Positions 23,073 through 57,472 of a DNA stretch of 64,000 bases are shown one piece after another. The stretch is from Elusimicrobiota bacterium (GTDB lineage Bacteria; Elusimicrobiota; Elusimicrobia; UBA1565; UBA9628). How positions within the stretch are numbered: the stretch's first letter is position 1; every line of letters starts with the position of its first letter. A program made the translations under genes and the position numbers. Location: the NCBI GenBank assembly GCA_016234805.1, contig JACRNU010000054.1, positions 24,329-88,328 on the forward strand, read 5' to 3'. The notes beneath the pieces were generated by a model, which searched no databases, was not told where the DNA came from, and worked only from the letters and a program-made list of their open reading frames with translations.

Positions 23073-23887
23073 GGAAAAGGGACGCGGTCCAGGTCGGCGG
23101 GACCGCGGTCATCATCCCTGCCCGGTGGGGATCCACGCGCTTCCCCGGCAAGGTCCTCGCCCTTCTCGGAGGCAAGCCCATCGTCCGGTGGTGCCACGAG
23201 GCCGCGGTCGCGTCCCGGATCGGCCCTGTGGCCGTGGCCACGGACGACCTCGAAGTCGTCCGGGCCGTGGAAGCCTTCGGAGGCCGCGCTGTCATGACCC
23301 CGAAAAACCTGGCCTCGGGCACGGACAGGGTCCTTGCGGCCCTCAAGCGGCTGCGGTGGTCCCCCCGCTTCGTGGTCAACCTGCAGGGAGACGAGCCCCT
23401 GATCTCCCCGTCGGGTTTGAGGAGCCTCGATCGCCTCCTGCGCTCCGCGGGCGCCGACGTGGCGACCCTCGTCACCCCCTTGAAGGGCGCGGAACGCCTC
23501 CAGCGGCCCGACGTGGTCAAGGCCGTCCTGGCCAAGGACGGGCGGGCCCTTTACTTCTCCCGTTCCCCTGTCCCGTACCGCCGCCAGCCCCCTCCGGCGA
23601 GAGGAGTACGGCTTTCGCCTTCGGGGACGGCGGTCCCTTGCCGCCAGGAAGAGCCCCGGCGCTGGGAGCACATCGGCATCTACGGGTACAAGGCCGCATC
23701 CCTGCGCCGCTTTGTCTCCCTTCCCCCCTCCCCGCTCGAGCGTGCCGAGTCGCTCGAACAGCTCCGGGCCCTGGAGGATGGGATGAGCATCTACGCCGCG
23801 GTGGTTCCCGCCCGCGGCGTGGCCATCGACACGCCGGCGGACCTGGCGCAAGCAGAACGACTGATACAGAAAAGAAGGAGCCCTTGA
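23069..23887 (+). CDS. kdsB: 3-deoxy-manno-octulosonate cytidylyltransferase (CMP-Kdo synthetase)
   Basis: Motifs [39 protein letters not shown] and HIGIYGY. It carries a 57-bp repeat copy in frame at 23588-23648. Confidence 0.85.
23588..23648. repeat. 57-bp repeat family copy D (reverse orientation), in frame inside kdsB
   Basis: The reverse complement reads CCTGGCGGCAAGGGACCGCCGTCCCCGAAGGCGAAAGCCGTACTCCTCTCGCCGGAGGGGG. It encodes ...[19 protein letters not shown]... in a loop that is enlarged relative to typical KdsB sequences. Confidence 0.75.
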
Positions 23888-26504: not shown

Positions 26505-26894
26505 ATGAAATGCATGAATTGCGGGCAGGACAACAAGGACACGGCCAAGGCGTGCAGGAAGTGCGGCCGCGACCTTTCCACTCCGCCGGCGTGGTTCCCG
26601 GACGCGAAGTGGCACATGCGCACACTGGGGATCATCTACGCGTGCCTGGTGGTCCTGTACTTCGGAGTCTCCTTCCTCCTGCGAAGATTGCCCAGGCCCT
26701 ACCACATCCGCGACATCGCGCCCGAGATGACGCCCTGGCTCAAGCGGCCGGGTCTGCCCAAGCACCTGCCGGAGGAGCAGCTCAAAGCTCCGGCGAGTCC
26801 CCCGAAGCCTGTCTCGGAAGCGGGAGCCACTGGCGGCAAGGGACCGCCGTCCCCGAAGGCGCCGGACGTTCTCCTCTCGCCGGAGGGGGAGTGA
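26505..26894 (+). CDS. Zinc-ribbon (CxxC...CxxC) membrane protein; its C-terminal tail is encoded by a 57-bp repeat copy
   Basis: MKCMNCGQDNKDTAKACRKCG followed by one TM segment. The last ~25 aa (...[23 protein letters not shown]) derive from repeat copy E. Confidence 0.5.
   Translation: MKCMNCGQDNKDTAKACRKCGRDLSTPPAWFPDAKWHMRTLGIIYACLVVLYFGVSFLLRRLPRPYHIRDIAPEMTPWLKRPGLPKHLPEEQLKAPASPPKPVSEAGATGGKGPPSPKAPDVLLSPEGE
26828..26890. repeat. 57-bp repeat family copy E
   Basis: CACTGGCGGCAAGGGACCGCCGTCCCCGAAGGCGCCGGACGTTCTCCTCTCGCCGGAGGGGGA, the reverse complement of copy D. Confidence 0.75.
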
Positions 26895-29400: not shown

Positions 29401-29477
29401 CTGCTCCCCTTCAGGGGGCCTGGCGCAAGGGCGCCAGGTCCCCGAAGGGCAGGCGTCCTCCGCTCCCGGAGGGGGCC
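29401..29477. repeat. 57-bp repeat family copy F (canonical form) between convergent genes; it encodes the C-terminal tail of the minus-strand metalloprotease
   Basis: CCTGGCGCAAGGGCGCCAGGTCCCCGAAGGGCAGGCGTCCTCCGCTCCCGGAGGGGGCC, preceded by a CCCCTTCAGGGGG mini-hairpin. Confidence 0.8.
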
Positions 29478-31273
29478 ATGCTGCGCCGCTTGAGCAGGAG
29501 GAAGGCGAGCCTGAGGTGCCGGGGAAGGACCGAGCCTGCGAGCGAGCTCATGATGCTGGCTGGGTTCTGGAACTCCACCGAAGCGCGCAGGTCCGGGTCG
29601 TAGCCGTTGCGGTACTCGTCGGCCAGGCCCATGGTGTGGCCGAACTCGTGGGCTGCGGTGGCGTACTGGAGGTCGTGGCCCAGGAGGATGACGTCCGGCC
29701 CGGCCAGGGAGAGCCACTTGTCATTGTCCCGGATGGCCAGGGCTCCCTGGGAGAAAGCGGTCCCAGGGGCGAGCTTGCGGATCTCGATCTCCGTCCTGAA
29801 GGTGTGGGTCTTCTTCTGGAACTCGAAGCTGCCCTGCCAGTACTCCTCGATGGAGGCTTTGACGGACCGGAGCACGGCGTCGTCCTGGATGTCGGTCTCG
29901 AACGAGGCCTTCACCACCCAGCCGCCCTTCTCCGCGGACAGGCGCAAGCCTTTGTTGTCCGGGACCCATACGATGCCGCGGGCCCTGCCCGTGATGGATT
30001 CGGGGTTGAGGAAGCCGTTCACCAGCGAGTAGGACGCGATGCGCTCCACCCCGGTGAAGAGCACGCCCGCCTTGCGCTTGTAATCCTCGAGCACAGCGAT
30101 GAGCTTCTGCGCGGTGAATTCCTTGGCTGAAAGAGAATATCCCTCGATGCGGCGCGAGAACTTGGCGCTGCGCGCAGCGATCTGGTAGCGGGAGAGGTGC
30201 TTCTCCACGAGGAACCGCCACTCCTTGACCATGGCCGCCCAATCAGCCGTCTTGTTGACCAGGGAGACCTCGGTGTCGCGGTCCTGCCCGCGAGATTCCT
30301 TGGGGAGCGGAGGCTTGATCTGCCAGGGGTGCTCGACTTTCTCCTGCGCCTGGCCCGTGGGAGCGCCGGTCTGGGCTGGAGACGGGGCGAGCAGGCTCTG
30401 GACCTTGCCGTCGAGAGTCCGCATGGGCTTGAGATAGGGGTTTTCGCTCAGGGCCTTCACGGTCCCCTTGAGTCGTTCGTTGAGCGCCTGGGCCAGTCGG
30501 CCGCGCTCCATGGCCGGCAGGTCGCTTTCCGCCACGCGGCGCAGACTTCCGATCATGGCGTTGAGCGTCAGAGCCATGGCCTGCCGCTCGTTACGCAGCC
30601 AGGGGAGGACCTCTTCCATGGCTTTCGCGTCCCAAAGGATGAAGGCTTGGAACCCCTGGCTGGTCAGGATGGGATGGGCTCCTGTCACGAACTCGGCTTC
30701 CATCCAGGAGACCTGCTTGCTGTCCAAATCAGTGACAGGCCCGGCAGGAGGCAGGTCTTCCTGGGCTTCGGCCAGGGTCTCCCCGATCAAAGCTTTCTCG
30801 ATCTCCTGTCCGGCCCGGCGGCTTCCGTCCGGGGAGGCCTTGTCATCCCCTGCTGTCTTCAAGGGGGCGGCAATGGTCTCGCTCAACTGAAGGATGCGCG
30901 ATTCAAGGCTGGTTGCGGCTTTCCTTTCAGCCGATGTCTGTGAGGGTCCGGCCGGCGTCAGGACCGGGACCGCGGCGCTGAGAGAGGGGACGACCGAGTC
31001 CTTGATCTCCGGAGCAGGCAGACTGAGCAGCGCGATTGAAACAGGGATGATGCTGCCGGCCGGGGCCGCGAGGCTCAGGGAAAGCTGGTTCTGGAAGGAG
31101 GGCCCTGAGATCGGGCTGACCGGCGCCGCCAAGATCGAGCCCGGGACTGTCCGGATCCGGATGGGAGCGGTCCTGATGGTCTGGCACCAGGATGTGCCGG
31201 TCAGGACCAGGGCCGCGGCAAGGATAGGACTCGGGAACGCCATTGATTGATTATGCTTGCAGGATAAGACCAT
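29411..31273 (-). CDS. Secreted zinc metallopeptidase-like protein (HEXXH)
   Basis: 620 aa with a signal-peptide-like N-terminus and HEFGHTMGLADEY near the C-terminus. The last 19 aa (SGSGGRLPFGDLAPLRQAP) are read from repeat copy F. Confidence 0.5.
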   Translation of the reverse strand: MVLSCKHNQSMAFPSPILAAALVLTGTSWCQTIRTAPIRIRTVPGSILAAPVSPISGPSFQNQLSLSLAAPAGSIIPVSIALLSLPAPEIKDSVVPSLSAAVPVLTPAGPSQTSAERKAATSLESRILQLSETIAAPLKTAGDDKASPDGSRRAGQEIEKALIGETLAEAQEDLPPAGPVTDLDSKQVSWMEAEFVTGAHPILTSQGFQAFILWDAKAMEEVLPWLRNERQAMALTLNAMIGSLRRVAESDLPAMERGRLAQALNERLKGTVKALSENPYLKPMRTLDGKVQSLLAPSPAQTGAPTGQAQEKVEHPWQIKPPLPKESRGQDRDTEVSLVNKTADWAAMVKEWRFLVEKHLSRYQIAARSAKFSRRIEGYSLSAKEFTAQKLIAVLEDYKRKAGVLFTGVERIASYSLVNGFLNPESITGRARGIVWVPDNKGLRLSAEKGGWVVKASFETDIQDDAVLRSVKASIEEYWQGSFEFQKKTHTFRTEIEIRKLAPGTAFSQGALAIRDNDKWLSLAGPDVILLGHDLQYATAAHEFGHTMGLADEYRNGYDPDLRASVEFQNPASIMSSLAGSVLPRHLRLAFLLLKRRSMAPSGSGGRLPFGDLAPLRQAP

Positions 31274-31298
31274 GGAGAGGGTCCTAGGACCCAGAAGG

Positions 31299-31325
31299 GA
31301 TGGATAGAGGGCCTAAACCATAGGG
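31299..31325. repeat. 22-bp direct repeat GGGCCTAAACC(A)TAGGGCCTAT, left copy
   Basis: It recurs at 33553-33580 with one mismatch. The two copies bracket a 2.25-kb pseudopilin and Cys-rich-protein module. Confidence 0.75.
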
Positions 31326-31448
31326 CCTATAAGAGCTGCTCCGATTGGTCACCACGCCTGCCGCCGAGCAGCAACGGGCGCACACGGATTTTGCGAATTA
31401 TGCCGCACTTCCCATCAGATGTCGCTGGACCCCGCGAAGAACTTCAGG

Positions 31449-32033
31449 CTAGGGCACGCACAGGCACTTCACCGCCGACCCGGTCACATCCGCCATGACC
31501 CCTCCCTTGAAGAGGCGCCCTGCGGCGGAGTCCGTGCAATAACGGTTGCAGGCCGCCAGGCAGGCCAGCTCGTTCCAGTCATCGCCGGCTCCGCAGGAGC
31601 CGACGTACTCCTTCAGGGCGGCGAAGCTGACGGTCGCCACCAGGGCGCTCATCGGCCGCCAGCCCTGCCTGAGCCTGAGGTTCAGGTCCTGCGTGTCGGT
31701 GGTGTAGATGAGCGCGCCCTCCGTCGTGATGGCGTCCCTCTGCGTCGTGTTCATGCGGGGCGGGAGGAACCCCGCGGTCGTGGACTCCACGTCGAGCGCT
31801 CCGTTCGGGTTGGTCGTGCCCACGCCCACGCGTCCGCCGTCCCGGGCCAGCAGGGTGACGCCCGTGGTGGTCAGCCGCTGATAGACGCCAGCGGGCGACG
31901 GATAGTAGGTCGTCATGGTGAGCGACTCGGAGCCGAGTTCGGCCGCGCAGAGGCAGACCAGGCAGGCCGCCAGGATGCCGCGCGCCTGCCCGCGGCCGAA
32001 CCGGATGCGGATGACGATCTCCCTTTCTTCCAT
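31449..32033 (-). CDS. Secreted Gly/Thr-rich protein with a Cys-rich C-terminal domain (tail-fibre-like motif pair)
   Basis: Hydrophobic N-terminus, then GVGTTNPNGALDV...PRMNTTQRDAITTEGALIYTTDTQDLNLRLRQGW, then 8 Cys in the last 50 aa (CGAGDDWNELACLAACNRYC...KCLCVP). The start codon is uncertain. Confidence 0.45.
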   Translation of the reverse strand: MEEREIVIRIRFGRGQARGILAACLVCLCAAELGSESLTMTTYYPSPAGVYQRLTTTGVTLLARDGGRVGVGTTNPNGALDVESTTAGFLPPRMNTTQRDAITTEGALIYTTDTQDLNLRLRQGWRPMSALVATVSFAALKEYVGSCGAGDDWNELACLAACNRYCTDSAAGRLFKGGVMADVTGSAVKCLCVP

Positions 32034-32120
32034 AGAGGCCCTCCGTACCTCATCTTAGCACTATCCGAAGGGATTGCGAAAGGCGCGCCACAACGATATA
32101 CTCCGAGGAAGGACCGAACC

Positions 32121-32537
32121 ATGGACTCCCGGGGAACAACCTTCGTCGAGCTGATGGTCGCGACCGTGCTGCTCGCCTCGGCGGCCTCGATGGTGGGCTC
32201 CGTCTTCCTGAGCGGCAGCCAGCAATCAGCGCGGGCGCAGCGGCGGGAGGAGGGCTCCGTTTGCCTTCAGCAGCTCATGGACGAGCTCAGGAACTACGTG
32301 ACGGCGGACACCGGAACGGTCGCGGCCGCTCCCGGCGGGAGCTGGGCGCTCCCGGGCGACGGCTGCGGGTCCTGCTGGGCGCTCCAGCCGGGCAAGCACG
32401 ACGTCACGGCCCGTCTCCCGACCGCCTGGGCCGGCGTCGGCATGGAAGCGGCGATGAGCTACACCGTGGCCGGGGAATCCCGCAACGGGCTCACCGTGCG
32501 GCGCGTGGACGCCCGCATCGACTGGAATGTGCGCTAA
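32121..32537 (+). CDS. Minor pseudopilin (prepilin-type N-terminal cleavage/methylation domain)
   Basis: MDSRGTTFVELMVATVLLASAA gives G|TTFVEL with a Glu at +5, followed by a hydrophobic helix. Confidence 0.6.
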   Translation: MDSRGTTFVELMVATVLLASAASMVGSVFLSGSQQSARAQRREEGSVCLQQLMDELRNYVTADTGTVAAAPGGSWALPGDGCGSCWALQPGKHDVTARLPTAWAGVGMEAAMSYTVAGESRNGLTVRRVDARIDWNVR

Positions 32538-33132
32538 GAGACTCCTTCCGCGCGGCCGAGGCGGCGTCACTCTCGTCGAGCTGCTCCTCTGCATGACCCT
32601 TTTCTCCATGGTCCTCGCGGCCGTCCTCCAGATCGAGTACATGGGACTCAGGGCTCAGATGCGCTCCGCCGCCGCGATGGTCGTGAGCGCCAACGTCGTC
32701 CTGGCCCGCCAAGCCCTGGTCGGCGCGCTCCAGCCTGCGTGCGACGTGCTGAGCCCGGCTCCCGGCTCCCGGGGGCCCTCCCTCACCGTGCTGCATAACT
32801 ACGACGCCGAGTTGCGGCAGCCCCTGATAAGCGGCTTGCCGGCCGAGCTCTCGTACTTCTGCGTGGATGAGGGGAAGCGACGATTGTTCCTCTACCGCGG
32901 GCCCGTCACGGCCGCCTTCGGGGACTGCGGCTCGCTGCCGGGCCTGGGCGTCGAACGGGTCCTCGTCGCGGGAGGCGACAACTTCCGCGTCACGGCGGAT
33001 TTCTCCCGTCCGCCGGCCGCGAACAACCTGGTGGCGGCGGACTTCACCGTGTCCCTCCGGCACGCCTCGCTCACCACGGACACCACGGTGACGCGTCATC
33101 TCGAGGTGGGCTTTCGCCATGCCCTGCGATAG
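32527..33132 (+). CDS. Minor pseudopilin (GspJ-like)
   Basis: ...RGRGGVTLVELLLCMTLFSMVLAAV is a prepilin-like leader plus helix. Its start overlaps the previous gene. Confidence 0.55.
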   Translation: MCAKRLLPRGRGGVTLVELLLCMTLFSMVLAAVLQIEYMGLRAQMRSAAAMVVSANVVLARQALVGALQPACDVLSPAPGSRGPSLTVLHNYDAELRQPLISGLPAELSYFCVDEGKRRLFLYRGPVTAAFGDCGSLPGLGVERVLVAGGDNFRVTADFSRPPAANNLVAADFTVSLRHASLTTDTTVTRHLEVGFRHALR

Positions 33133-33481
33133 AGCCCGGTCCCTGCGCCTCGCGGGCGGCCGCACCGGGTCGGTCCTGATATGGGTCGAGGTGACTCTGG
33201 TCATCCTCGCGATCATGAGCAGCCTGGTGGTCAGGATCGCTATGAACCAGCACACCATGGTCGCCCGGGCCAACGACTCGGCCCAGATGCGGCTGGCGGC
33301 CCTGGCGGCGGAGAGCCAGGCCGCGGCCTGCCTCTACGACGAAGGGGATTTCGGCCGCGCCCACTGCTCGCTGGCCTTGGCGGCCGCCTGCCTGCCGTCC
33401 CGGATCGCGGGCTACGACGTGACATTCACCGCCTCGGGCTCGCCCCCGTCCTGCGAGCTCAAGGTGAACCTCACCCGGTAG
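33119..33481 (+). CDS. Pseudopilin-like small protein
   Basis: Hydrophobic N-terminal helix VLIWVEVTLVILAIMSSLVV with a Glu, 120 aa. This is a weak call. Confidence 0.35.
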   Translation: MPCDRARSLRLAGGRTGSVLIWVEVTLVILAIMSSLVVRIAMNQHTMVARANDSAQMRLAALAAESQAAACLYDEGDFGRAHCSLALAAACLPSRIAGYDVTFTASGSPPSCELKVNLTR

Positions 33482-33552
33482 CCGATCCGTGTCGCATCCG
33501 GCCGCTTATGCCTCCCGCGAATCCAGTCCGGGAACCAGGCCTGTCTTTCGAC

Positions 33553-33580
33553 GAGGGGCCTAAACCCTAGGGCCTATTCG
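33553..33580. repeat. 22-bp direct repeat GGGCCTAAACC(C)TAGGGCCTAT, right copy
   Basis: Pairs with 31299-31325. Confidence 0.75.
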
Positions 33581-33599
33581 AGGAAAACTTATGTTCAGT

Positions 33600-34700
33600 C
33601 TAGGTATAGATTTCCAGATGGGTATGCAGGCCGGTCTTCCTGGCAAGGGCCAGGCCTTGGTCGAAGAGCTTCTCACCTTCAGTCGTGCGGCCTTGAGCGT
33701 GTCGGACCGCTGCCAGGGCCATGAGGGATAGAACGACGCCCCGGTGCTCCTCGAACCTGCCGAACCCTGAGAGAGCTGTCATGAGCCTTCGGCCTGCATC
33801 ATCGAGCCTGCCCTCTGCCATGGCGATCTTGCCCAGGCCCCAATCCACATAGGCCAGGTCCACCGGGTCCTTGATGAGGGTGTAGAGCCGGTGCGAGGCA
33901 GCGTAGCAGCCACGCGCTTCCTTCAGCCTGCCCAACTGCCGCAGGCAGTTGCCTGTCCCGCACTCGGCATAGGCTTGGGCGAAGAGGTCTTGGGTCTTGG
34001 CAAAGGCCTTCCTGCTGCGAAGGTACCAAGCCAGGGCAGCGGATAGGTTTCCCTTGATCCTCTCGATGCCGCCCAGGCCGAGCATGGCATATCCCCGGCC
34101 CATGGGATCCTTGGCCTTGCCTGCCAGAGCCAGGGAGTCCTCGTAGTCCTTGAGAGAGCCGGAGAGGTCGCCGCTGAAGCGTCGCGCTCCGCCCAGGGCC
34201 CAGAGGATGTAGGCCATGGCTGGAAGGTCCTTCCTGCGCCGGAAGAGCGCGAGGAATCCCGAGAGCTCCCGGATGCTCCGAGGGTAACGGCCCTCGGCCC
34301 GGTCGAGCAGGATGCCTTCGAGCCTGCAGCGTTCCGCGTGGGAGGCCAGGCCCTGTTTTTTGGCCAAGGACATCCCCTGGGAGAGGAGTCTCCTGGCCTT
34401 CGCGCATTCCCCGAGGCTGCGCAGCGCTGAGACCAGACCCAGGCAGGAATCGAGCCAGAGCACGGTGTCGCGGGACCGGTCCGTGCCGGCCAGGGCTTTC
34501 TCGTACCAGGGCCGGCATCCGCCCAGGCTGCCCATGGACCTCAGGCACTCTGCGCGCACATGCGCGTGCTCGGCGCGGAACTGCGGCGGCACGCCAAGGC
34601 CGAGAGCGCGCAATCCATCCTGAGGCCTGCCATCTTCGAGGAGCTGTTGGGCTTTCTCGAGGTCCTGCGCCGCGCTGAAAAGGTCCTTCGATGCGCTCAT
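33600..34700 (-). CDS. Tetratricopeptide-repeat protein
   Basis: 366 aa of consecutive TPR-like helical hairpins (AxxYxxxG-type spacing). Confidence 0.7.
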   Translation of the reverse strand: MSASKDLFSAAQDLEKAQQLLEDGRPQDGLRALGLGVPPQFRAEHAHVRAECLRSMGSLGGCRPWYEKALAGTDRSRDTVLWLDSCLGLVSALRSLGECAKARRLLSQGMSLAKKQGLASHAERCRLEGILLDRAEGRYPRSIRELSGFLALFRRRKDLPAMAYILWALGGARRFSGDLSGSLKDYEDSLALAGKAKDPMGRGYAMLGLGGIERIKGNLSAALAWYLRSRKAFAKTQDLFAQAYAECGTGNCLRQLGRLKEARGCYAASHRLYTLIKDPVDLAYVDWGLGKIAMAEGRLDDAGRRLMTALSGFGRFEEHRGVVLSLMALAAVRHAQGRTTEGEKLFDQGLALARKTGLHTHLEIYT

Positions 34701-36154
34701 TTCATCAGCCTCCGGGCTGCGTCGATCACGATGCTGGTCGCGGACCTGCCGATGGAGTTGGTCTCCTCGTAGTGGTGTCCGGGCCTGCGAGGCAGGAGCG
34801 TCAGGCTGTCCTGGACCTTGAAATCGTATTCGGGCACGATGTAGCCGAGCTCGTCATTGGCAAGGTTGACCACGAAGCGGGTCTTGCATGGCAGGAGATC
34901 CTTGAGGTACGGGCCCTTGGGAGCCTTGGACAGGTCCGGCGGGTCAGGATTGGCCGGGTCCAGGAGAGGCTGCCCTCCGCGGAATTCGCCGGCAAAGCCT
35001 CCGATGGCCAGTTCCGGGAAGAGCTCCCCCGGGATGCCGAGCCCGCACGCCGGGCCCAGGGAAAGGAAGCTCACCTCGGTCTCGACCCAGGGCAGTTCGT
35101 CCTTCTTGAGCCTGCGAACAATGTGCCGCGCAGGCAGGGTGTAGGCCTTGGAAGCGGGCAGGGGATCGCCGGCCGCGTCCCGGAGCGTGTGCCCGGAAGC
35201 CAGGGAGCGCAGGGACAGGAGGTAGCGCGAGTTCTCGACCGGCACGCGCACGGTCTCGGCCTTGGAATCCACGGGGAAGCCGGTCATGGGCTTGCAGGCT
35301 TCTGAGGAAAGGGCCTTCATGGCGCGGGCAGCCAGTTCGCCGCCGATGCGAGAAACTTCGCGGAAATCGCGCGGGGCCCGCGTGTCCGGGGTAGCGAGCC
35401 CGCCGATGGAGCCGGGCAGGAACAGGCAGGTCCCTCCTCGCTCCTCATCGAGTTTCGAGCAGAGCGCTCCGGCATAGTCGCCGCTCACGAGCATGTTCGT
35501 CTTGTCGAGGACTTCAGGGTGGCAGGACCAGTTCACGATGGTCGCGACAGGCTTGCCGGCCATGGTCTCCGCGGCCAGGACGGTGAGGTACGGGTCCACC
35601 ACGGCCGGGTCACGCAGGTCCTTGCACAGCCCTTTCGGGTCGAGCTTGGAGGAGGCTGAGCGAAGACGCGCGGGCTTGAGCCTGTCATTGGCGGTGAGGA
35701 CCGCGGCCGCCACCTTCTCCTTGACGCCTTTCATGTATCCGAGGTCCACGCCCGAGACTCCCGGCACCGGGCCCCACATCCCGAGGGTGTCCGGCCCGGA
35801 GTGCGTGTGGCTCGCGGTCACGAAGAGGTAGCGGCCCGGCTTGTCGAAGCGGGTCATCCTGCGCAGGTCGAGCACATCGTTGAGGAACAGGCCGATGAGG
35901 TCCAGGGACACGATCGCCACGGTCTTCCTGCCGTCGGAGAACACCGCGATCCTCGCGTAGAGCCGGTCGTGGATGCCCTGGGCTCTGCGGCCCGTGGCTC
36001 CGTAGCCGGCGAGGAACACGCGGTTCGTGTCGAGCGCCGGAGTGATGTCCACTTTGCTCGCAGAGGCGAAGGAGACCTGTCCTCCCCCTGCCGCGCCGGC
36101 GGACAGCGGCGCGAGGCCAAGGCAGGCTGAAGCGGCGAGAGCAAGGGCCAGCAT
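34697..36154 (-). CDS. Neutral/alkaline ceramidase-family protein (secreted)
   Basis: Signal peptide MLALALAASACLG. N-terminal ceramidase motifs VDITP...GYG...GIHDRLYARIAVFSDG...VSLDLIG...FVTASHTHSGPDT. The start was taken at the ATG at 36154. Confidence 0.6.
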   Translation of the reverse strand: MLALALAASACLGLAPLSAGAAGGGQVSFASASKVDITPALDTNRVFLAGYGATGRRAQGIHDRLYARIAVFSDGRKTVAIVSLDLIGLFLNDVLDLRRMTRFDKPGRYLFVTASHTHSGPDTLGMWGPVPGVSGVDLGYMKGVKEKVAAAVLTANDRLKPARLRSASSKLDPKGLCKDLRDPAVVDPYLTVLAAETMAGKPVATIVNWSCHPEVLDKTNMLVSGDYAGALCSKLDEERGGTCLFLPGSIGGLATPDTRAPRDFREVSRIGGELAARAMKALSSEACKPMTGFPVDSKAETVRVPVENSRYLLSLRSLASGHTLRDAAGDPLPASKAYTLPARHIVRRLKKDELPWVETEVSFLSLGPACGLGIPGELFPELAIGGFAGEFRGGQPLLDPANPDPPDLSKAPKGPYLKDLLPCKTRFVVNLANDELGYIVPEYDFKVQDSLTLLPRRPGHHYEETNSIGRSATSIVIDAARRLMK

Positions 36155-38693: not shown

Positions 38694-40316
38694 ATGAACA
38701 AGGATTGCGATTTCCTCGTGCTTGGAAGCGGCATCGCGGGCCTCATGGCCGCGCACAAGCTCTCCACCCTGGGCCGGGTCGTGATCGCCACCAAGAAAGA
38801 CGCCGCCGAGTCCAACACCAACTACGCCCAGGGCGGCATCGCCTCCGTGACCGCGGCGACCGACAGCGTGGAGCGGCACGCGGCCGACACCATGGCCGCG
38901 GGAGCCGGGCTCTGCGACGAGAGGATCGTCCGCCAGGTGGTCACCGAGGGGCCTGAGCGCATCAAGGAGCTCATCAGCCTCGGGGTCAAGTTCAGCCACG
39001 CCAAGGCCGCTGCCAAGGCGCGCGGCTCGCGGCGGGGTCCGCGTCCCGCGGACCGCTCAGGCACGGCCCTGGACCTGGGCCTCGAAGCCGGCCACTCCCA
39101 CCGCCGGGTCCTCCACGCGGGCGACATCACCGGCCGCGAGATGGAGCGGGCCCTGCTCCAGCGCTGCCGCGAGAACCCCCGCATCCGCATCCTCGAGGAT
39201 TCCCTCGCCGTCGACCTCATCTGCCGTCCCGACTGCCAGGGCGCTTACATCATGGACGTCCGGAGCAGGAAGATCCACTCCTGGAGCGCCAAGGCCGTGG
39301 TCCTGGCCACGGGCGGGGCCGGCAAGGTCTACCTCTACACCTCCAATCCCGACATCGCCTCCGGCGACGGCATGGCCATGGCCTACCGCGCCGGAGCCGC
39401 CATGGCCAACATGGAGTTCGTCCAGTTCCACCCCACCTGCCTCTACCACCCGCAGGCCAAGTCCTTCCTCCTCTCCGAGGCCCTGCGCGGGGAGGGAGGC
39501 AGGCTCGTGCGCAAGGACGGCGCGGCCTTCATGGCAAAGTACACGCCCATGAAGGAGCTCGCGCCCCGCGACATCGTGGCCCGGGCCATCGACTCGGAGC
39601 TCAAGCGCACCGGCGACGACTGCGTCTACCTCGACATGACGCACCAGTCCCGCGGCTTCCTGCAAGGCCGCTTTCCCAACATCTACGAGAAGCTCATGAG
39701 CTTCGGCATCGACATGGCGGTCGAGCCCATCCCGGCCGTGCCCGCGGCCCACTACTTCTGCGGCGGGGTCAAGACCGACGCCTGGGGCTCGACCACCATC
39801 CCCGGCCTCTATGCCTCGGGCGAGGTGGCCTGCACCGGCCTGCACGGCGCCAACCGCCTGGCTTCCAACTCCTTGCTCGAAGGCTGCGTGTTCAGCCACC
39901 GCATCTTCCTCAAGCTCAGCGAGCTCTGGCCCACGCTCAAGCGCTCGCGCCCGGCCCCTCCGCGCGACTGGAACCCAGGCAAGGCCGTGCCCATCGACGA
40001 GGCCGTGGTCATCACCCAGAACTGGGACGAGATCCGCCGCCTCATGTGGAACTACGTGGCCATCGTGCGCTCCGACCGCAGGCTCGAGCGAGCGCTCCAC
40101 CGCATGTGGCTCTTGAACGCGGAGATCGACCAGTACTACTGGAACTACATCCTCACTCCGGACCTCGTGGAGCTCCGCAACCTCGCCGTGGTCGCGACCC
40201 TAGTCATCAGCTCGGCGCGCAAGCGCAAGGAGAGCCGCGGCCTGCACTACAACCTCGACCACCCCAAGCTTCGGGCCCGCGAGCTCCACGACACCGTCAT
40301 CCAGAGGAAGAAGTAG
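38694..40316 (+). CDS. nadB: L-aspartate oxidase
   Basis: FAD-binding motif DFLVLGSGIAGL, AQGGIA and RVLHAGDITGRE, plus the succinate dehydrogenase / fumarate reductase flavoprotein fold. Confidence 0.9.
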   Translation: MNKDCDFLVLGSGIAGLMAAHKLSTLGRVVIATKKDAAESNTNYAQGGIASVTAATDSVERHAADTMAAGAGLCDERIVRQVVTEGPERIKELISLGVKFSHAKAAAKARGSRRGPRPADRSGTALDLGLEAGHSHRRVLHAGDITGREMERALLQRCRENPRIRILEDSLAVDLICRPDCQGAYIMDVRSRKIHSWSAKAVVLATGGAGKVYLYTSNPDIASGDGMAMAYRAGAAMANMEFVQFHPTCLYHPQAKSFLLSEALRGEGGRLVRKDGAAFMAKYTPMKELAPRDIVARAIDSELKRTGDDCVYLDMTHQSRGFLQGRFPNIYEKLMSFGIDMAVEPIPAVPAAHYFCGGVKTDAWGSTTIPGLYASGEVACTGLHGANRLASNSLLEGCVFSHRIFLKLSELWPTLKRSRPAPPRDWNPGKAVPIDEAVVITQNWDEIRRLMWNYVAIVRSDRRLERALHRMWLLNAEIDQYYWNYILTPDLVELRNLAVVATLVISSARKRKESRGLHYNLDHPKLRARELHDTVIQRKK

Positions 40317-40347: not shown

Positions 40348-41151
40348 TCAGGCCGTCTTCCAGACCTCGTCGAGCGATTCGCGGAAGACGGCGTCCAGCG
40401 TCTCCCAATCCACGGGATGCCGGGCGGCCTTGGGAGGCATTTCATTGTTCAGCCGGGAGATCTCCCGCTCCACGAACCCATTGATATCCGGTATTCTGGG
40501 ACCGTCAGCGAGCTCTTCTCCCGCTCGCTTGCGGCGGAGGAGATCGGACACGATGGGTCGGAGCCGCTCGGGCAGCCGGTCGTCCACGAGTTTGGCGAAC
40601 TCCATCGGCGGCATGGACCGGTGCGCTTCGATCCAGCGGCACGCCAGGATCGGACGGAGCACATAGAAGTACTTCTTGGTGCGGACGCGCGGGCCCTGGA
40701 GATACTCGCGGAAGTTGCCCTGCGCCATGTGAAGATAGTGGTGGAGGCACGACCGGGAGGAAAAGAACGCCGCTGACATGCGGCGCAAGCTCGCCATCGT
40801 CGAATACGCCTCCCGATAGACCATCGGAGAACGGAGCCACTCGAAGAGCGGCGGATTCGATTTGGCGAAGAGCCCGAGAGCCTTCCGCAGGTCCCAACCG
40901 CTGACATCGAGAGATTCGGAAAGCGGGAATTCGAGGACATCCCTTCTCCGCTGGATCGACAGATACCATTCGGGCCGCCTCAAGTAGATGAAGCGGACGT
41001 CCCAATCGGAATCGGTCGAGGCGAAGCCCCATGCCCTGCTGCCCGATTCGACCGCGAGCAGGACTTTGACCCCTTCGTTCCTTTCAATCCGCCCGAGCGC
41101 GGCGCGGATGGTATTTTTCATGGCGTCTCTGTGCCCTTCCATCCGTATCAT
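40348..41151 (-). CDS. Pol-beta-superfamily nucleotidyltransferase (PF10127/RlaP-like 'predicted nucleotidyltransferase')
   Basis: GS...D.D core LLAVESGSRAWGFASTDSDWDVRFIY with a C-terminal helical domain. The start was taken at the ATG at 41151, a 4-nt overlap with the upstream gene. Confidence 0.55.
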   Translation of the reverse strand: MIRMEGHRDAMKNTIRAALGRIERNEGVKVLLAVESGSRAWGFASTDSDWDVRFIYLRRPEWYLSIQRRRDVLEFPLSESLDVSGWDLRKALGLFAKSNPPLFEWLRSPMVYREAYSTMASLRRMSAAFFSSRSCLHHYLHMAQGNFREYLQGPRVRTKKYFYVLRPILACRWIEAHRSMPPMEFAKLVDDRLPERLRPIVSDLLRRKRAGEELADGPRIPDINGFVEREISRLNNEMPPKAARHPVDWETLDAVFRESLDEVWKTA

Positions 41152-42326
41152 GATGCGTTGCCGCCGATCCCTCCGGCGCTCGATCGCGGATAACCCCGCT
41201 CGATTTCCGCGAATATCTGCCAATCCCTTGCAATAAACGGCTGAATGGTTCGGCCTGTCATTTCCCCCATAGCCTGAATCAGCGAGAGATCGTCCGGGTT
41301 GGCCATGGCTATTGCAAGGATGCCCTCGTCCAGGAAGAGAGGCACCACGGCGTGTTCTTTGGCAAAGGACCGCGGGATGAGTTTCTCTAGACCCTGCGCA
41401 TGTTCCATTTTTAGAATCTTGTTCTCGAATGAGGCATAGGGAATCCCCATCTGTCGCGAGATGGCTGTCACCATCGTCTCGTCATCGGTGCCGCCCACTC
41501 TACGCAGAAGATCCATGAAATCGTGGAAATCGATGCTCATGTCCACCCGTAATGCCTCGGCGATTCCCGCAGTGAGATCATATGCCGGCAGACGGCGAAC
41601 CTGGTTGGTGTGTTGGGGGAGGACCTGACGCAAGGCTTCTGTTCCAGCCTTCCATGGCTCGTCAGCCCGTTGCTTGTGATTGAACACGGTGCTGAACGAG
41701 CTGGGCAATCGGGATTGAACGAATTCCCGCGCAAGCGCGTTCAGGGCTGGGATGTTCCGTTCAGCGATATTGTCCTCGTGGGGATCGACAACCCAAAAGC
41801 CATGTTCGATCTCCATCAGGAGGGATCGGCCGAAATGGCTGGATGGCCGGTGGATATCCCCGATTTCTGGTCCGAAGTCCAGGACCACATTGTAATGGCT
41901 CTTTAGGTCGTCCAGCAAACCCTTCAAGAATTCGGGCGATAAAGCCTTAAGGGCGGACTCATTCTTCCCCAGCGGGAGGATGCCAAGTCCTGTGGTTGAG
42001 AACGGAACAGATGTAGTTGTCGCTTGGAGGTCCAGCACGCTTTGGGTACCGGCAATTCCAAGCTGTCCTTGGAATCGATTCGCGCTCTCGAAATCGAGTG
42101 TGAGCAGCACGGTCTTGCATCTGGACCAATCTGCCCACGCCAACGCGACATGGAATGCCAGAGTTGAAACTCCGACTCCCGGAACACCGGCGAAACCCAC
42201 CGCCTTCTTCGTGGCGATGGGGGTTGGACTGCTCCCGCCCGCCATGTCGGTCCCCACTCGTGTTGGCGGCCAACGGGGCGGTCTGTCTCGGGAGGCTTTG
42301 GGTTTCTTGTCTGGGTCGGATGTCAT
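41148..42326 (-). CDS. Fusion protein: degenerate ParA/MinD-like P-loop domain (Walker A Lys replaced by Val: GVPGVGVST) + GspE-N1 / MshEN-like domain
   Basis: The C-terminal 95 aa (ISRQMGIPYASFENKILKMEHAQGLEKLIPRSFAKEHAVVPLFLDEG...) is ~50% identical to residues ~50-145 of the GspE encoded at 59835-61583. The N-terminal half has a MinD/ParA-like layout with an inactivated P-loop. Local GC (~52%) is lower than the window average. Confidence 0.5.
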   Translation of the reverse strand: MTSDPDKKPKASRDRPPRWPPTRVGTDMAGGSSPTPIATKKAVGFAGVPGVGVSTLAFHVALAWADWSRCKTVLLTLDFESANRFQGQLGIAGTQSVLDLQATTTSVPFSTTGLGILPLGKNESALKALSPEFLKGLLDDLKSHYNVVLDFGPEIGDIHRPSSHFGRSLLMEIEHGFWVVDPHEDNIAERNIPALNALAREFVQSRLPSSFSTVFNHKQRADEPWKAGTEALRQVLPQHTNQVRRLPAYDLTAGIAEALRVDMSIDFHDFMDLLRRVGGTDDETMVTAISRQMGIPYASFENKILKMEHAQGLEKLIPRSFAKEHAVVPLFLDEGILAIAMANPDDLSLIQAMGEMTGRTIQPFIARDWQIFAEIERGYPRSSAGGIGGNAS

Positions 42327-42473
42327 CCTATTGTAGTCACGCCGACATTGGACTGCCTCCTAATGAGTAGATAGGCCAGTATAACACGGCTGACGAGAAT
42401 CGCTCAACAGATAAGCGCCCTGAAGGCCGTCGAAATCGGCAAGGGTGGTGCGTGTGGGTGGCATGCGGCGGGC

Positions 42474-42881
42474 CTATCGTCGTGCCTTGGATCTCCGATT
42501 GCCGCGGGAGGAGAGGGTTCCATAGCGACGACGGCGATCCGCCACGGCGGACTCTGTCCAGTGATAAGCGTGTCCTTTCCCGTTGATCGGGAAGAAGCCG
42601 ATCCTCAGGCCGTAGACGTTGAGGATCGCGTCCAGGGTGTTGAATTCGGGGTTGCCTCTTGAGGAAAGGGTCTTGTATAGGGTAGTCCTGCTCAAGCGGG
42701 TCTTCTTGGCCAGGGCGCCGACGCCGCCTTGGGCCTCCACGACATCGCGCAGGGCCTCCAGGAGGAAATCGAGTTCGTTGTCTTCGGCGATTGCGTTGAG
42801 GTAGGCAGCGGCCTCTATTGGATCGGCAAGATACTTCTTGAGGAACTCTTCATGCGGCCTAGTCGTGATGATGGGTTTCAT
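42474..42881 (-). CDS. Addiction-module antidote protein (HigA-like, TIGR02684-type HTH antitoxin)
   Basis: ...TRPHEEFLKKYLADPIEAAAYLNAIAEDNELDFLLEALRDVVEAQGG...LSRTTLYKTLSSRGNPEFNTLDAILNVYGL. It sits downstream of and overlaps the toxin gene. Confidence 0.7.
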   Translation of the reverse strand: MKPIITTRPHEEFLKKYLADPIEAAAYLNAIAEDNELDFLLEALRDVVEAQGGVGALAKKTRLSRTTLYKTLSSRGNPEFNTLDAILNVYGLRIGFFPINGKGHAYHWTESAVADRRRRYGTLSSRGNRRSKARR

Positions 42882-43222
42882 GGAAGCCTCCTGTGCTGTA
42901 GCCACATCTGGTGGGCTCTATGGATGTCCTTTGTCTGGGTATCCTTGGGGCCAGCGCAGAGCAGCAGCACGATGACTGGCCCGTCCTCGCCGTAGTAGAC
43001 ACGGTAGCCTGGGCCGGTATGGATGCGCAGTTCCCAGACTCCGCACCCCACGGAACGATGGTCTCCAAATTGGCCTTTGCGTACCCGGGCAATGCGCTTG
43101 AGGATCGCGATGCGACCGGACATGTCGCGAAGGCCGAATAGCCAGTCCTCAAAGATGTTCTTTCCATTGGCGAGATAGTGCTGAATCTGTCGTCTTCGGG
43201 GTTCCAAGTCTTCCTCCTTCAA
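42878..43222 (-). CDS. Addiction-module killer protein (RelE/HigB-like, TIGR02683-type)
   Basis: ...FEDWLFGLRD...GNFGDHRSVGCGVWELRIHTGPGYRVYYGEDGPVIVLLLCAGPKDTQTKDI. It is toxin-first, the HigBA-type arrangement. Confidence 0.7.
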   Translation of the reverse strand: MKEEDLEPRRRQIQHYLANGKNIFEDWLFGLRDMSGRIAILKRIARVRKGQFGDHRSVGCGVWELRIHTGPGYRVYYGEDGPVIVLLLCAGPKDTQTKDIHRAHQMWLQHRRLP

Positions 43223-43339
43223 GTGTAGTCTATAAAAGACAATCGGTCAAGGGCCCGGATCTCGACCTCACCCAGTGTTCGGGCGGGCGGATTGATCCCT
43301 GGGCCAGTGGAGCACCCAAGGCCGTTCATCGGCCGGCAA

Positions 43340-43440
43340 GAATTGCGTTTCCATTCATTTCGCTGTTTCCGGGATCGCGGAAATGGCGTTTCTATGAATT
43401 TCTCTTTCAGCGCTGGAAGAGAACTGCAGGGAAACGCAAT
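43340..43440. promoter_or_regulatory. Cluster of GCGTTTCC / GGAAACGC inverted and direct repeats upstream of the toxin-antitoxin operon
   Basis: AATTGCGTTTCC...CTGTTTCCGGG...CGGAAATGGCGTTTC...GGGAAACGCAAT within about 100 bp. This is a candidate operator array. Confidence 0.4.
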
Positions 43441-43802
43441 CATGCATCCGTGAGGGCGGCCGCGATACTCCGCTTCGTATCGAGCCAATCGTTGTCGAGC
43501 TGGGCTTGGCGCCGGTCAAGTTCGTAGAGCGCGCCTGCCGGCAGAGCCACGAGACGGCACCCGAGAGCTGCGTATAGACTTTTGAGCGTGCTGAGCCGGA
43601 TGTCCGAACCCTTCTCGGCCCGGCCGACCAACGAGGCGGAGACCCCTGCCTGGGCCGCGAGCTGCTTTCGATTCAAGCCGAAGCGGATGCGCAGCCGGCG
43701 CAGACATTCACCGACGTCCCACGACGCGAAGTCAACGGGAGCCGACTCCCCATGCGCGAGAGCATCGCGCACCGGATCGGAGACGTCCCGAAGTTCCCCC
43801 AT
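43440..43802 (-). CDS. XRE-family helix-turn-helix transcriptional regulator, divergent from uvrA
   Basis: HTH_XRE signature [48 protein letters not shown]. The start was chosen at MGELRD; the listed ORF extends further upstream. Confidence 0.55.
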
Positions 43803-43931
43803 ACAGAGTATACGACTGACCCCGGCAAAAAGTTCCCTTGGGGGCTTGAATCTCTGAAGGGAAATCGGAATCTCAATGGAATGGAGCTCGCGTTCGCGGA
43901 TAGGGGCCGAAAGGCCGGGCAGGAAGGCAAA

Positions 43932-46772
43932 ATGGTAGAATCGTCTCCGGTGGACAAGATACGCATCGTCGGCGCGCGCCAGCATAACCTCAAGAACATC
44001 ACACTGGAGCTTCCCAGGGGCAAGATGATCGTGCTGACAGGGCTTTCGGGGTCAGGGAAATCCTCCCTGGCCTTTGACACGCTCTATGCCGAGGGCCAGC
44101 GCAGGTATGTGGAGAGCCTCTCGGCTTATGCGCGGCAGTTCCTCGAGATGATGGACAAGCCGGACGTGGACCTCATCGAGGGGCTTTCGCCTGCCATCTC
44201 CATCGAGCAGAAGAACCCCTCTCACAACCCGCGCTCGACCGTGGCCACGGTCACGGAGATCTACGACTACATGCGCCTGCTCTACGCCAGGGTGGGCCTG
44301 CCGCACTGCCCGCAGTGCGGCAGGCCGATCAAGGCGCAGTCAGCGCAAGCCATCGTCAACGAGATACTGCGCAAGCACGACGGCCGATCCGTGACCTTTT
44401 ACTCCCCCCTGGTGCGGGGCAGGCAGGGCACTTACGAAGAGTTGTTCAAGCGGTTGAAGCGCTCCGGGTTCCAGGCAGTGCGTGTGGACGGCAAGCCGCG
44501 CGACCTGGACACGGTGCCGTCTTTGACGCGGTACGGGAAGCATACCATCGACCTTTTCGTGGACAAGCTGAAGGTGTCCGGGGATGACAAGGCCAGGCTG
44601 ACGGACTCGGTGGAGATCGCTCTCAAGGAGTCGAAGGGGCTGGTGTTGGTCGAGCCTGGGGGCTCGGCCAAGGACGCGGCTGTCTTGAGCGAGCACCACG
44701 CCTGCCCTGAGTGCGGGGTGAGCCTGCCGGAACTGGAGCCGAGGCTGTTCTCCTTCAACTCACCCTACGGCGCCTGTCCCACCTGCGACGGGCTGGGAGT
44801 CAAGACCGAGGTGGATGGTTCCTTGGTGGTCCCGGATCCCGGGCTCTCGGTCAATGACGGGGCCTTGGTGGCTTGGTCGGACCCGATCACGACCCGCACG
44901 AACAGGTGGAAGAAGTCCTGGTCAGGGTATTACACGGAGATCCTCCAGCAGGTCTGCCGGCAGCACGACATCAACATGGACAAGCCGTGGAAGGACCTTC
45001 CAGCCAAGCAGAAGCAGATCCTGTTCTACGGAGGCGGGACTTACAAGCCGTCCTGGGCGAAGAACGAGCAGGAGTTCGAGGGCGTCATCCGGAACCTGGA
45101 GCGCAGGCTCTCGGAGTCCGAGTCGGATTTCGTCAAAGGCGCGGTCGTGGACCGGTTCATGCGCAAGCGGACCTGCCCTTCCTGCAAGGGGGCCCGCCTC
45201 AAGCCCGAGGCCCTGGCGGTCAAGGTGGGCGGGCAGGGCATCGATCGGACCACGGGGTTGTCCGTGGCCAAGGCCTCGGAGTTCTTCAAGGGGCTGGACC
45301 TGAACGCGAGCGAGCTCTCGATCTCCAAGCCCATCCTCAAGGAGATCAACTCGCGCCTGGAATTCCTCATGAGCGTGGGGCTGGATTACCTCACCCTGGA
45401 CCGCGCCTCGGAGACCCTGGCCGGCGGGGAGTCCCAGCGCATCCACCTGGCCACGCAGATCGGGTCAGGCCTGACCGGGGTCCTGTATGTGCTCGATGAG
45501 CCCACCATCGGCCTGCATCCGCGCGACAACACGCGCCTGCTGGCCACTTTGAAGCGGCTTCGGGACATCGGCAACACCCTGGTGGTGGTGGAGCATGACG
45601 AGGAGACGATCCGCGCCGCGGATTGGATCGTGGACCTGGGCCCTGGAGCGGGCAAGCACGGCGGAGAGGTCGTGGCTCAAGGCACGGTGGACGACATCGT
45701 CAATGAGCCGCGGTCCCTGACAGGGGCCTATCTTTCGGGCAAGCTCAAGCCTCTCCAGCGGCTGGAACGGAGGAAGGCCAAGGGCTCCCTGCGGGTCCTG
45801 GGCGCCAAGCAGTTCAACCTCAAGGACATCGACGTGGAGATCCCCCTGGGCATGTTCGTGTGCGTCACCGGGGTCTCGGGGTCGGGCAAGTCCACCCTGG
45901 TGCACGAGGTCATCTGCAAGGCCCTGGCCGCGGACCTGCACGGCGCCAAGGAAGCGGCGGGACAGCACCGCGCCATCAAGGGCATCGAACAGTTGGACAA
46001 GGTCGTGGTGGTCGACCAGAGCCCCATCGGCCGGACCCCGCGCTCCAACCCCGCCACTTACACGGGCCTATGGGCCCCTATCCGCGAGCTCTTCGCCATG
46101 ATGCCGGAGTCCAAGGCCCGCGGTTACAAGCCGGGCAGGTTCTCCTTCAACGTCAAGGGCGGCAGGTGCGAGAACTGCCAGGGAGACGGCACCCTGCGCA
46201 TCTCCATGCAGTTCCTGCCGGACGTGTACGTGCAGTGCGACGAGTGCCACGGCCACCGGTTCAATGACGAGACCCTGACGGTCCGGTACAAGGGCAGGAG
46301 CATCGCCGAGGTCCTGGCCATGAGCGTGGAAGCGGCCTCGGAGTTCTTCCAGGTCCACACCCCCATCAAGCGGGTCCTGACTACCCTGCAGGACGTGGGC
46401 TTGGGCTATATCGCCCTGGGCCAGAGCGCGACCACGCTCTCAGGCGGCGAGGCCCAGAGGGTCAAGCTTGCCACGGAACTCTCGCGCAGGGGCACGGGCC
46501 GGACCCTCTACATCCTGGACGAGCCCACCACGGGCCTGCACTTCGCGGACACGGCCAAGCTCCTCGAGGTCCTCCACCGGCTGGTGGATTCGGGCAACAC
46601 GGTGCTCGTCATCGAGCACAACCTGGACGTGGTCTCGACCGCGGACTGGGTCGTGGACCTGGGCCCTGAAGGAGGCGACCGCGGGGGTCATGTCGTGGCT
46701 GTGGGCCACCCCAAGGACATCGCCAACCACCCATCTTCCCACACCGGCCGCTACCTAGCTGCCCTCAAGTAG
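43932..46772 (+). CDS. uvrA: Excinuclease ABC subunit A
   Basis: Two ABC ATPase modules ([14 protein letters not shown]..., [11 protein letters not shown]...), zinc fingers (CPECG..., CENCQGDG...CDEC) and LSGGE signatures, 946 aa from the ATG at 43932. Confidence 0.95.
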
Positions 46773-57234: not shown

Positions 57235-57472
57235 GGGCGCCAGGTCCCCGGAGGGCAGATGTCCTCCGCTCCCGGAGGGGGCCCGGCGCAAGGGCGCCAG
57301 GTCCCCGGAGGGCAGATGTCCTCCGCTCCCGGAGGGGGCCCGGCGCAAGGGCGCCAGGTCCCCGGAGGGCAGATGTCCTCCGCTCCCGGAGGGGGCCCGG
57401 CGCGGGGGCCCGGCGCAAGGGCGCCAGGTCCCCGGAGGGCAGATGTCCTCCGCTCCCGGAGGGGGCCCGGCG
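57225..57472. repeat. Tandem array of four 57-bp repeat units (canonical family sequence), the fourth with an 11-bp insertion
   Basis: CCTGGCGCAAGGGCGCCAGGTCCCCGGAGGGCAGATGTCCTCCGCTCCCGGAGGGGGC x4. The unit is 19 codons, so every frame repeats (e.g. RRAPSGSGGHLPSGDLAPL on the minus strand). There are no spacers, so this is not a CRISPR array. Confidence 0.85.

Follow-up and report, generated by a model that had tools for sequence, protein, structure and literature searches.

How did a four-gene block, bordered by two nearly identical 22-bp sequences, come to lie between two genes that are adjacent in two related genomes? The question is raised by a 64,000-nucleotide stretch of Elusimicrobiota DNA (contig JACRNU010000054.1 of a metagenome-assembled genome [MAG] with locus tags HZB91_08220 and HZB91_08225, referred to here as the window), in which the gene of a TPR protein and that of an HExxH protease are separated by a gene for a secreted, cysteine-rich, tip-like protein and by three genes for pilin-like proteins (p1, p2, and p3), together called the module. 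The 22-mer is the native start of the TPR-protease spacer, where a 2.2-kb block was inserted, and we consider it probable that the integration itself left the element on both sides as a 22-bp target duplication. The repeat pair marks the insertion, without showing that the module can still move.

On the plus strand of the window, the two copies of GGGCCTAAACC(A/C)TAGGGCCTAT occupy positions 31309 to 31330 (copy 1) and 33556 to 33577 (copy 2); they are identical at 21 of 22 positions, and the sole mismatch is A versus C at position 12. A preliminary description of this locus had placed the repeats at 31299 to 31325 and 33553 to 33580, and while the pair itself exists, these coordinates were off by a few bases. 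Read on the minus strand, copy 1 is ATAGGCCCTATGGTTTAGGCCC and copy 2, on the far side of the insert from the protease gene, is ATAGGCCCTAGGGTTTAGGCCC. With as many as three mismatches allowed, neither strand of the 64 kb contains a third copy, in agreement with the preliminary description, and none of 100 dinucleotide shuffles gave any match. Ungapped extension of the repeat reached 27 nt at 89% identity, and local alignment of the 110-nt flanks on each side of copies 1 and 2 did not rise above shuffled controls, so the edges of the repeat are sharp. A longer, diverged duplication, for which the sequence CATAAG followed by 7 nt and an ATG after copy 2 was a candidate, was rejected on the same grounds, the alignment of the flanks being no better than shuffles.

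Between the repeats lies a segment of 2225 bp (31331 to 33555), made up of the four genes and of noncoding ends of 118 nt and 74 nt, with a GC content of 0.687 versus 0.66 in the flanks. Its gene layout is the one reported earlier, one minus-strand gene for the secreted Cys-rich protein and three plus-strand genes. The asymmetric spacer of the 22-mer, AAACCMT, sets its orientation, and both copies stand on the same strand as direct repeats. Recombination between them would thus delete or excise the module, and inversion is excluded; the inverted boundary repeats of an invertible segment are absent here, and the suggestion of an invertible cassette has to be given up.

The two genes that border the block are the TPR protein gene on its upstream side (33600 to 34700, minus strand, 366 amino acids [aa], Pfam TPR_12 and TPR_MalT) and the HExxH protein gene on its downstream side (29411 to 31243, minus strand, 610 aa). 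Orthologs of the latter (P0024 to P0026) are 63 to 66% identical to it, and the four proteases are mutually 63 to 66% identical. All three orthologous loci show the order HisK, response regulator (RR), HhH-GPD, ceramidase-like, TPR, and protease, followed by a response regulator on the other strand and lptB. In two of them the TPR and protease genes are adjacent, with a gap of 84 nt in L082 (JACRDQ010000039) and 82 nt in L085 (Ga0376277_0003794). The third, L083 (JACQWX010000066), is occupied at this point by a different insert of 1.4 kb, which carries a DUF6941 gene and a toxin-antitoxin pair of the BrnT/CopG type, with a GC content of 0.54 versus 0.68 to 0.69 in the flanks, and this insert lies on the same side of the element as the module in the window. 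The comparison of gene order in these relatives establishes the 2.2-kb module as an insertion at this junction, and the earlier view of a block that breaks a conserved gene order has stood. Further features of the L083 insert (8499 to 9913) are a promoter region rich in AT and, 31 nt ahead of the native element, a perfect hairpin of 10 bp that resembles a terminator.

As the four lineages are roughly equidistant and the junction is empty in two of them, an empty ancestral site with two gains requires the fewest events. One could also suppose that the module is ancestral here and that the relatives lost it by recombination between the 22-mers, with one copy left behind, since single-copy sites like those of L082 and L085 are exactly what remains when direct repeats recombine and the DNA between them is deleted. 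We regard this as improbable: precise loss would have had to occur independently two or three times, with a replacement in L083 on top, where two gains suffice on the other view; in the empty sites there is no gap between the element and the TPR stop codon, while there are 22 extra nucleotides here; and the genomic contexts of the module in two other contigs (L002 and L092, see below) are unrelated.

The origin of the 22-mer itself can be read from the same loci. L082, L085, and L083 each carry one homologous, although not identical, copy of the element at the orthologous position. An alignment of five sequences in the TPR-to-protease direction (the two window copies, TTAGGTCCTCCGTTCTAGGCCT from L082, CTAGGTCCTAGGGCGTAGGACC from L085, and TTGGGCCCTTGGGTCTAGGCCC from L083) left 12 of the 22 element positions invariant, and it defines the element as two AGGNCCT boxes 14 nt apart, the window site reading AGGGCCT-N7-AGGGCCT. 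Where the site is empty, the element starts right at the stop codon of the TPR gene. A position weight matrix (PWM) gave 27.6, 27.0, and 21.8 bits at the orthologous sites (the last in leave-one-out scoring), compared with at most about 10 bits elsewhere in those loci, self-overlaps aside, and a best score of 19.0 in about 1.7 Mb of unrelated Elusimicrobia DNA. The strict two-box pattern occurred only in these loci, apart from one unrelated match in about 1 Mb. Because the element is conserved in relatives that do not have the module, the 22-mer is the native spacer, or rather its first 22 nt, and is tied to the upstream region of the protease gene. As far as the conservation of the spacer goes, copy 1 is shown to be in the native position, and copy 2 to be the duplicate on the far side of the insert. 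The repeats do mark the boundaries of the insertion, as had been proposed, but they were not brought in by the cassette.

That the pair might be a chance match, a dispersed repeat of the repetitive extragenic palindromic (REP) or miniature inverted-repeat transposable element (MITE) type, or an assembly chimera appears very unlikely. The window does hold several other GC-rich intergenic repeat families (see below), but the absence of shuffle matches argues against chance, and the locus-specific ortholog in the relatives is not what a common intergenic repeat would show. A dispersed REP-like or bacterial interspersed mosaic element-like repeat has many copies at unrelated intergenic sites, and here we found two in 64 kb. 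An exact-pattern scan with GGGCCTAAACCNTAGGGCCTA returned no match in the GTDB representative genomes, the JGI metagenomes, or IMG/VR, collections to which the source MAG evidently does not belong. With regard to assembly, Logan contig L087, assembled independently from run SRR12113407, corresponds to positions 32289 to 35501 of the window at 99.9% identity and reproduces the passage from p3 through copy 2 to the TPR gene, so that junction 2 is not an artifact of the MAG assembly. The central mismatch between the copies leaves exact matches of just 11 and 10 nt, by which an assembler would not be misled. Another Logan contig, L001 (SRR12113407_6370097), equals positions 31330 to 32315 and breaks off precisely at the boundary between copy 1 and the module; both contigs contain the integrated form only. 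A 22-nt repeat should not interrupt a graph built with k=31, and a drop in coverage or strain variation are candidate causes of the break in L001. We also noted that the hexamer CCTAGG has two sites in the 64 kb (31283 and 33566), compared with about 20 expected from a base-composition estimate, one in the palindrome upstream of the protease gene (see below) and the other in copy 2.

What follows the element differs between the two copies. In L082, L083, L085, and window copy 1, it is succeeded by about 16 nt of pyrimidines, a palindrome GGGTCCTAGG(A/G)CCC, about 23 nt, the hexamer CATAAT, 6 to 7 nt, and the ATG of the protease gene. The pyrimidine run, the palindrome, and the hexamer follow copy 1 only, with which they are contiguous, and not copy 2. 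In the window, the palindrome (GGGTCCTAGGACCC, conserved in L082, L083, and L085) is found at 31279 to 31292, upstream of the protease gene, and CATAAT, a −10-like box, at 31250 to 31255 on the minus strand, 6 nt before the ATG (31243) of the protease gene. Both the hexamer and its distance of 6 to 7 nt to the ATG are conserved in four genomes (at about 9985 to 10003 in the relatives), with no Shine-Dalgarno sequence, and the NCBI protein P0023 has 610 aa, which fits a start at 31243. This conservation suggests that the protease mRNA is leaderless, with CATAAT as the putative promoter box. Each AGGNCCT box is itself a small palindrome, and the large palindrome holds two more, an arrangement that suggests a protein-binding array. 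The large palindrome is centered some 42 nt ahead of the predicted leaderless start, a distance at which an activator or a repressor might bind. Upstream of more distant orthologs of the protease (L088 and L089, 43 to 46% identity), which have no TPR gene before them, there are TAGG boxes, a T run, and a related palindrome; kinship of these features with the element is only suggestive.

The two boxes can pair as a 5-to-7-bp hairpin in all four genomes, and together with the T/C-rich run they might, as a weak possibility, form a weak terminator for the TPR operon. The fold energies of the element were no better than those of shuffles (z from +0.4 to −1.9), and a scan for intrinsic terminators found none. 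A structured RNA or riboswitch was considered and set aside, with no Rfam match at the gathering threshold or at an E value of ≤1 and with fold z scores that were not significant.

These features bear on the idea that copy 2 was kept for its function, as a cis-regulatory element or a terminator that the TPR operon requires at its 3′ end and the protease gene in its upstream region, with selection or gene conversion keeping the copies nearly identical once the two genes had been separated. In that case, the identity of the copies would neither date nor explain the insertion. The idea would account for the conservation of the element, among proteases that are 63 to 66% identical, in a spacer that otherwise varies, for its overlap with the TPR stop codon in the empty sites, its place ahead of the T/C-rich run, and the hairpin common to the four genomes, and likewise for the boxes, T run, and related palindrome before the L088 and L089 orthologs. 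We find it rather unlikely, however. Copy 2 has no pyrimidine run, palindrome, or −10 box and so would be neither a terminator nor a promoter by itself, the results from folding, terminator scanning, and Rfam do not favor it, and a duplication event would still be needed to produce the second copy.

Returning to a target duplication as the preferred reading, the 2.2-kb block was inserted immediately upstream of the element, which ended up on both sides of it with sharp edges, and the duplication would have been made by the integration event itself. One possible route is a staggered cut across the element; the other is a crossover inside a common core, catalyzed in trans by a recombinase whose gene lies elsewhere. 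The inserted block carries the tip-like gene and, diverging from it, the genes for p1 (a GspI-like pilin), p2 (an N_methyl pilin), and p3 (a small protein). Because the copies are identical at 21 of 22 positions, the event may be fairly recent; this degree of identity suggests either a recent event or constraint or gene conversion acting on both copies.

Several observations weigh against such an insertion with duplication of its target. It is a single instance, and copies of the module in other contigs (L002, L049, L091, and L092) have no flanking repeats. Neither the PWM nor a gapped scan detected a second copy of the element at the L083 insert. Between the TPR stop codon and copy 2, which lies downstream of it, there are 22 unrelated nucleotides, whereas the element abuts the stop in the relatives, so that the arrangement is not a simple duplication of theirs, or else the ancestor differed. 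No recombinase or transposase open reading frame (ORF) was detected in or beside the module, the element may be a set of protein-binding boxes, a weak terminator hairpin, or a recombination site, and the copy 1 junction is covered by the MAG contig only. Moreover, the GC content and GC3 of the module are host-like and give no mark of a recent foreign origin. In L083, a degenerate second element at the left junction of the insert (two TCGGCC boxes 14 nt apart) was examined and rejected, as it was not among the top PWM hits and ranked 1195 of 32,876 in the gapped scan.

The block resembles a transposon insertion in that a native target is duplicated on both sides with sharp edges. Target duplications of transposons usually measure 2 to 14 bp. 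The duplication of 22 bp is much longer, and the insert has neither terminal inverted repeats nor a transposase ORF, so that what would characterize a transposon, an insertion sequence, or a MITE is missing; its ends match nothing else that was fetched. Remnants of a previous context were likewise absent from the noncoding ends, which match no other fetched locus.

The layout of the site offers another possibility. Formally it is 7-7-7, like that of a core-type recombinase site, with two quasi-palindromic 7-mers around a 7-nt spacer, and the one position at which the copies differ belongs to the central 7 nt. The 22-mers could then be the attL and attR of an integrase-less element, whose circular 2.2-kb cassette was integrated by a tyrosine recombinase encoded elsewhere and would still be excisable; we hold this to be possible but doubtful. 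Such elements have been described as cis-mobilizable elements (CIMEs), which keep attL and attR and have lost the genes for integration and transfer (PMC5704250), and satellite-like elements would be comparable. The module is similar to them as a short block with no recombinase among its ORFs (a point on which the preliminary description was right), bounded by direct repeats that match one site in genomes without the block, the copies in L082, L085, and L083 being homologous rather than identical. The sharp edges, the single-copy site in the relatives, the conservation of the boxes with a variable spacer across genomes, and the fact that the junction was hit twice in four lineages are all in keeping with this idea. 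On the other hand, no recombinase was found in the module or its neighbors, the mismatch sits in what would be the spacer or overlap, a region that normally has to be identical, and neither the module elsewhere nor the L083 insert has such repeats. The 22-mer is also absent from IMG/VR, the GTDB representative genomes, and the JGI metagenomes, so that no attP donor is known. Compared with CIMEs, the module comes as a single instance without evidence of an ancestor among integrative conjugative or mobilizable elements, of a cognate integrase, or of excision, and its target is a promoter-proximal spacer element rather than a tRNA or a gene end. The dif site of Escherichia coli, for comparison, has an 11-6-11 layout. 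A dif/Xer-type site was rejected for the 22-mer, which does not have that layout as judged by eye.

A more speculative extension, to which we give little credence, would be that Elusimicrobia have a class of recombinase-less cassettes, in this case a swappable pilus-tip set, integrated in trans at this conserved two-box, hairpin-forming element by an enzyme that cuts at both sides of it, so that the whole 22-bp target is duplicated, much as a CRISPR repeat is at spacer acquisition. The TPR-protease junction would then be a dedicated landing pad with different cargo in each lineage, a pilus-tip set here and a toxin-antitoxin pair in L083.

The same gene set was found in other contigs, and its gene content is conserved as a unit elsewhere, as judged by the orthologs. 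L002, a 20-kb Logan contig, carries orthologs of all four genes (57, 52, 43, and 55% identity for the tip-like protein, p1, p2, and p3, respectively) arranged divergently as in the window, with a methyltransferase gene on one side and genes for a HAD protein and an arginine decarboxylase on the other. The 22-mer is absent from this contig, and no direct or inverted repeats stand at both ends of the module. In three further contigs the genes are co-directional and sit in unrelated genomic contexts: L091 has a tip-like paralog followed by p1; L092, a tip-like paralog, a GYF-like gene, and p1-p2-p3; and L049, a tip-like paralog, a GYF-like gene, p1-p2, a second GYF-like gene, and p1-p2-p3. The association of a tip-like gene with pilin genes is therefore conserved across five loci, which argues for a joint function. 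As these copies occur without repeats, repeat flanking is not a general property of the module. Within L002, a REP-like element of 25 to 27 nt (GGGGTCAGGTCTGGACATTGGGACA) is present in three copies, one inverted and two direct, at 8483 to 8590, in the gap that separates the methyltransferase start from the end of p3. The GYF-like proteins (217 to 228 aa; L049, 3369 to 4031 and 5115 to 5801; L092, 1972 to 2625) have the N terminus MRYFVLLDG..GPL and a central hydrophobic segment; their gene stands between the tip-like gene and p1 in co-directional modules and is missing from the window and from L002.

The tip-like secreted protein (31449 to 32033, minus strand, 194 aa) has an N-terminal hydrophobic helix, a trimerization-type motif, and a Cys-rich C-terminal domain. 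The helix spans residues 14 to 33 (predicted local distance difference test score [pLDDT] of >90) and is followed by the motif SESLTMTTYYPSPAGVY...LARDGGRVGVGT; of the nine Cys residues of the protein, six fall within its last 50 residues. Pfam gave a match to Collagen_trimer (PF20010, E value of 6.5e-6), and the precomputed annotation is PF26696 (PTL_trimer). The AlphaFold model is poor (pLDDT of 61), too poor for a fold search. The only full-length relative is P0002, an ortholog with 57% identity that keeps the six C-terminal Cys residues. The N-terminal motif has a much wider distribution, with at least 278 loci in the GTDB representative genomes, mainly in Elusimicrobia and with several paralogs per genome, and at most of these loci there are no pilin genes nearby. 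With this family (TTYYPxPxGxY...LARDGGxVG, annotated PF26696 in some members), the tip-like protein has in common the invariant N-terminal motif and the trimerization-type segment, whereas its Cys-rich C-terminal domain is common to P0002 only. The family as a whole is highly paralogous (at least seven loci in MAG CAIKVT01 and at least eight in JACQBA01) and variable in its C-terminal domains, and a few members come from MAGs labeled Omnitrophota or Planctomycetia.

Upstream of the pilin-like trio there is a promoter-like, sigma-70-like sequence (TTGCGA-17-TATACT, 32074 to 32102, plus strand), whose hexamers and spacing are conserved in the orthologous module of L002. The first gene, p1 (32121 to 32537, plus strand), encodes a GspI-like minor pilin of 138 aa with a fold closest to GspI/XcpV/EpsI; its N_methyl score of 15.3 bits is under the cutoff (21.2), 32 of 60 members of the p1 family match, and the motif reads RG|TTFVELMV. 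The second, p2 (32527 to 33132, plus strand), is a prepilin-type protein of GspJ-like size, 201 aa long with an uncertain start (179 aa in the Logan call). It scored above the cutoffs for Pfam N_methyl (26.3 bits versus 21.2) and TIGR02532 (17.4 bits versus 16.3), and a homolog search returned only the query itself. It may be a GspJ, an assignment made from size and gene order only. The third, p3 (33119 to 33481, plus strand, 120 aa), is a candidate pilin with a hydrophobic N-terminal segment, four conserved Cys residues, no Pfam match, a weak N-terminal match to GspK (E value of 0.033), and an atypical N terminus, GSVLIWVEV. Profile searches against PDB sequences with p1, p2, and p3 gave weak N-terminal pilin matches only. 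The prepilin-type N terminus (G-x-x-x-x-E and then a hydrophobic helix) is present, in p2 with a score above the Pfam cutoff, and so is the pilin fold, a long N-terminal helix on a small beta-sheet.

The same genome also has a T2SS/type IV pilus machine (platform protein, ATPase, and secretin), with T2SSF, T2SSE plus MshEN, and Secretin at 58601 to 63751. Judged from its gene content only, the module most likely supplies this type IV filament machinery (58.6 to 63.7 kb) with an alternative complex for its tip or for priming. Multiple minor-pilin/PilY1 sets have been described for the type IVa pili of Myxococcus xanthus (PMC7541494, PMC8833165). Like these sets and the GspI-J-K tip of the type II secretion system (PDB 3ci0 and 5bw0), the module is a small pilin-like cluster that, together with a nonpilin secreted protein, lies away from the machine genes. 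Unlike PilY1, to which it is unrelated, the partner protein of the module is a tail-fiber-like, Cys-rich protein of 194 aa with a Sec-type N terminus. The module also differs from GspI-J-K and minor-pilin sets in having only three pilin-like genes, and p3 has 120 aa, compared with the 307 positions of the NCBIfam GspK profile. By analogy, the module may form a GspI-J-K/PilY1-like tip complex.

The locus provides a clean and comparatively dated case of an uncultured Elusimicrobia lineage gaining an extra pilus-tip or minor-pilin set, with the empty site, an alternative occupant, and the duplicated target all visible at one junction. Should a site-specific system that works in trans lie behind the duplication, the element would serve as an entry point to gene cassette exchange in a phylum without genetics. 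Otherwise, there would still be a defined, conserved cis element upstream of the HExxH protein gene and a five-locus link between a tail-fiber-like secreted family and GspI-like pilins, which suggests a role for a large uncharacterized family.

Elsewhere in the window, there is a second variable island at 40348 to 43750, between nadB (38694 to 40316) and uvrA (43752 to 46772), with a GC content of 0.57 to 0.59 versus 0.66. It encodes an RlaP nucleotidyltransferase, a 392-aa MshEN-domain protein, a HigA-like antidote (PF21716) with a small upstream partner, and a helix-turn-helix protein, and no flanking direct repeats were found around it. At the nadB-uvrA junction, L082 carries DUF488, a 392-aa protein, barstar, and GNAT; L085, an ISL3 transposase and GrpB; and L083, nothing. 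Of the GC-rich repeat families, CCTGGCGCAAGGGCGCCAGGTCCCCGGAGGGCAG...CTCCGCTCCCGGAGGGGGC forms four tandem units of 57 to 70 nt at 57210 to 57481, beside pilin-like genes, with single copies at 29404 to 29491, where the RR and protease gene ends converge, and at 49285 to 49372, and inverted relatives at 11403 to 11437. Two 60-nt inverted repeats (23588 to 23647 and 26830 to 26889), 92% complementary, bracket a 3.2-kb segment with pyrG and kdsA, and related copies are found at 10117 to 10217; they look REP-like, but such a length around housekeeping genes is unusual. A third intergenic hairpin family, AGGTGCCAGGCTTGG ... CCAAGCCTGGCACCT, is located at gene ends (4916 to 4970, 5606 to 5660, and 61659 to 61713) and has a terminator-like appearance.

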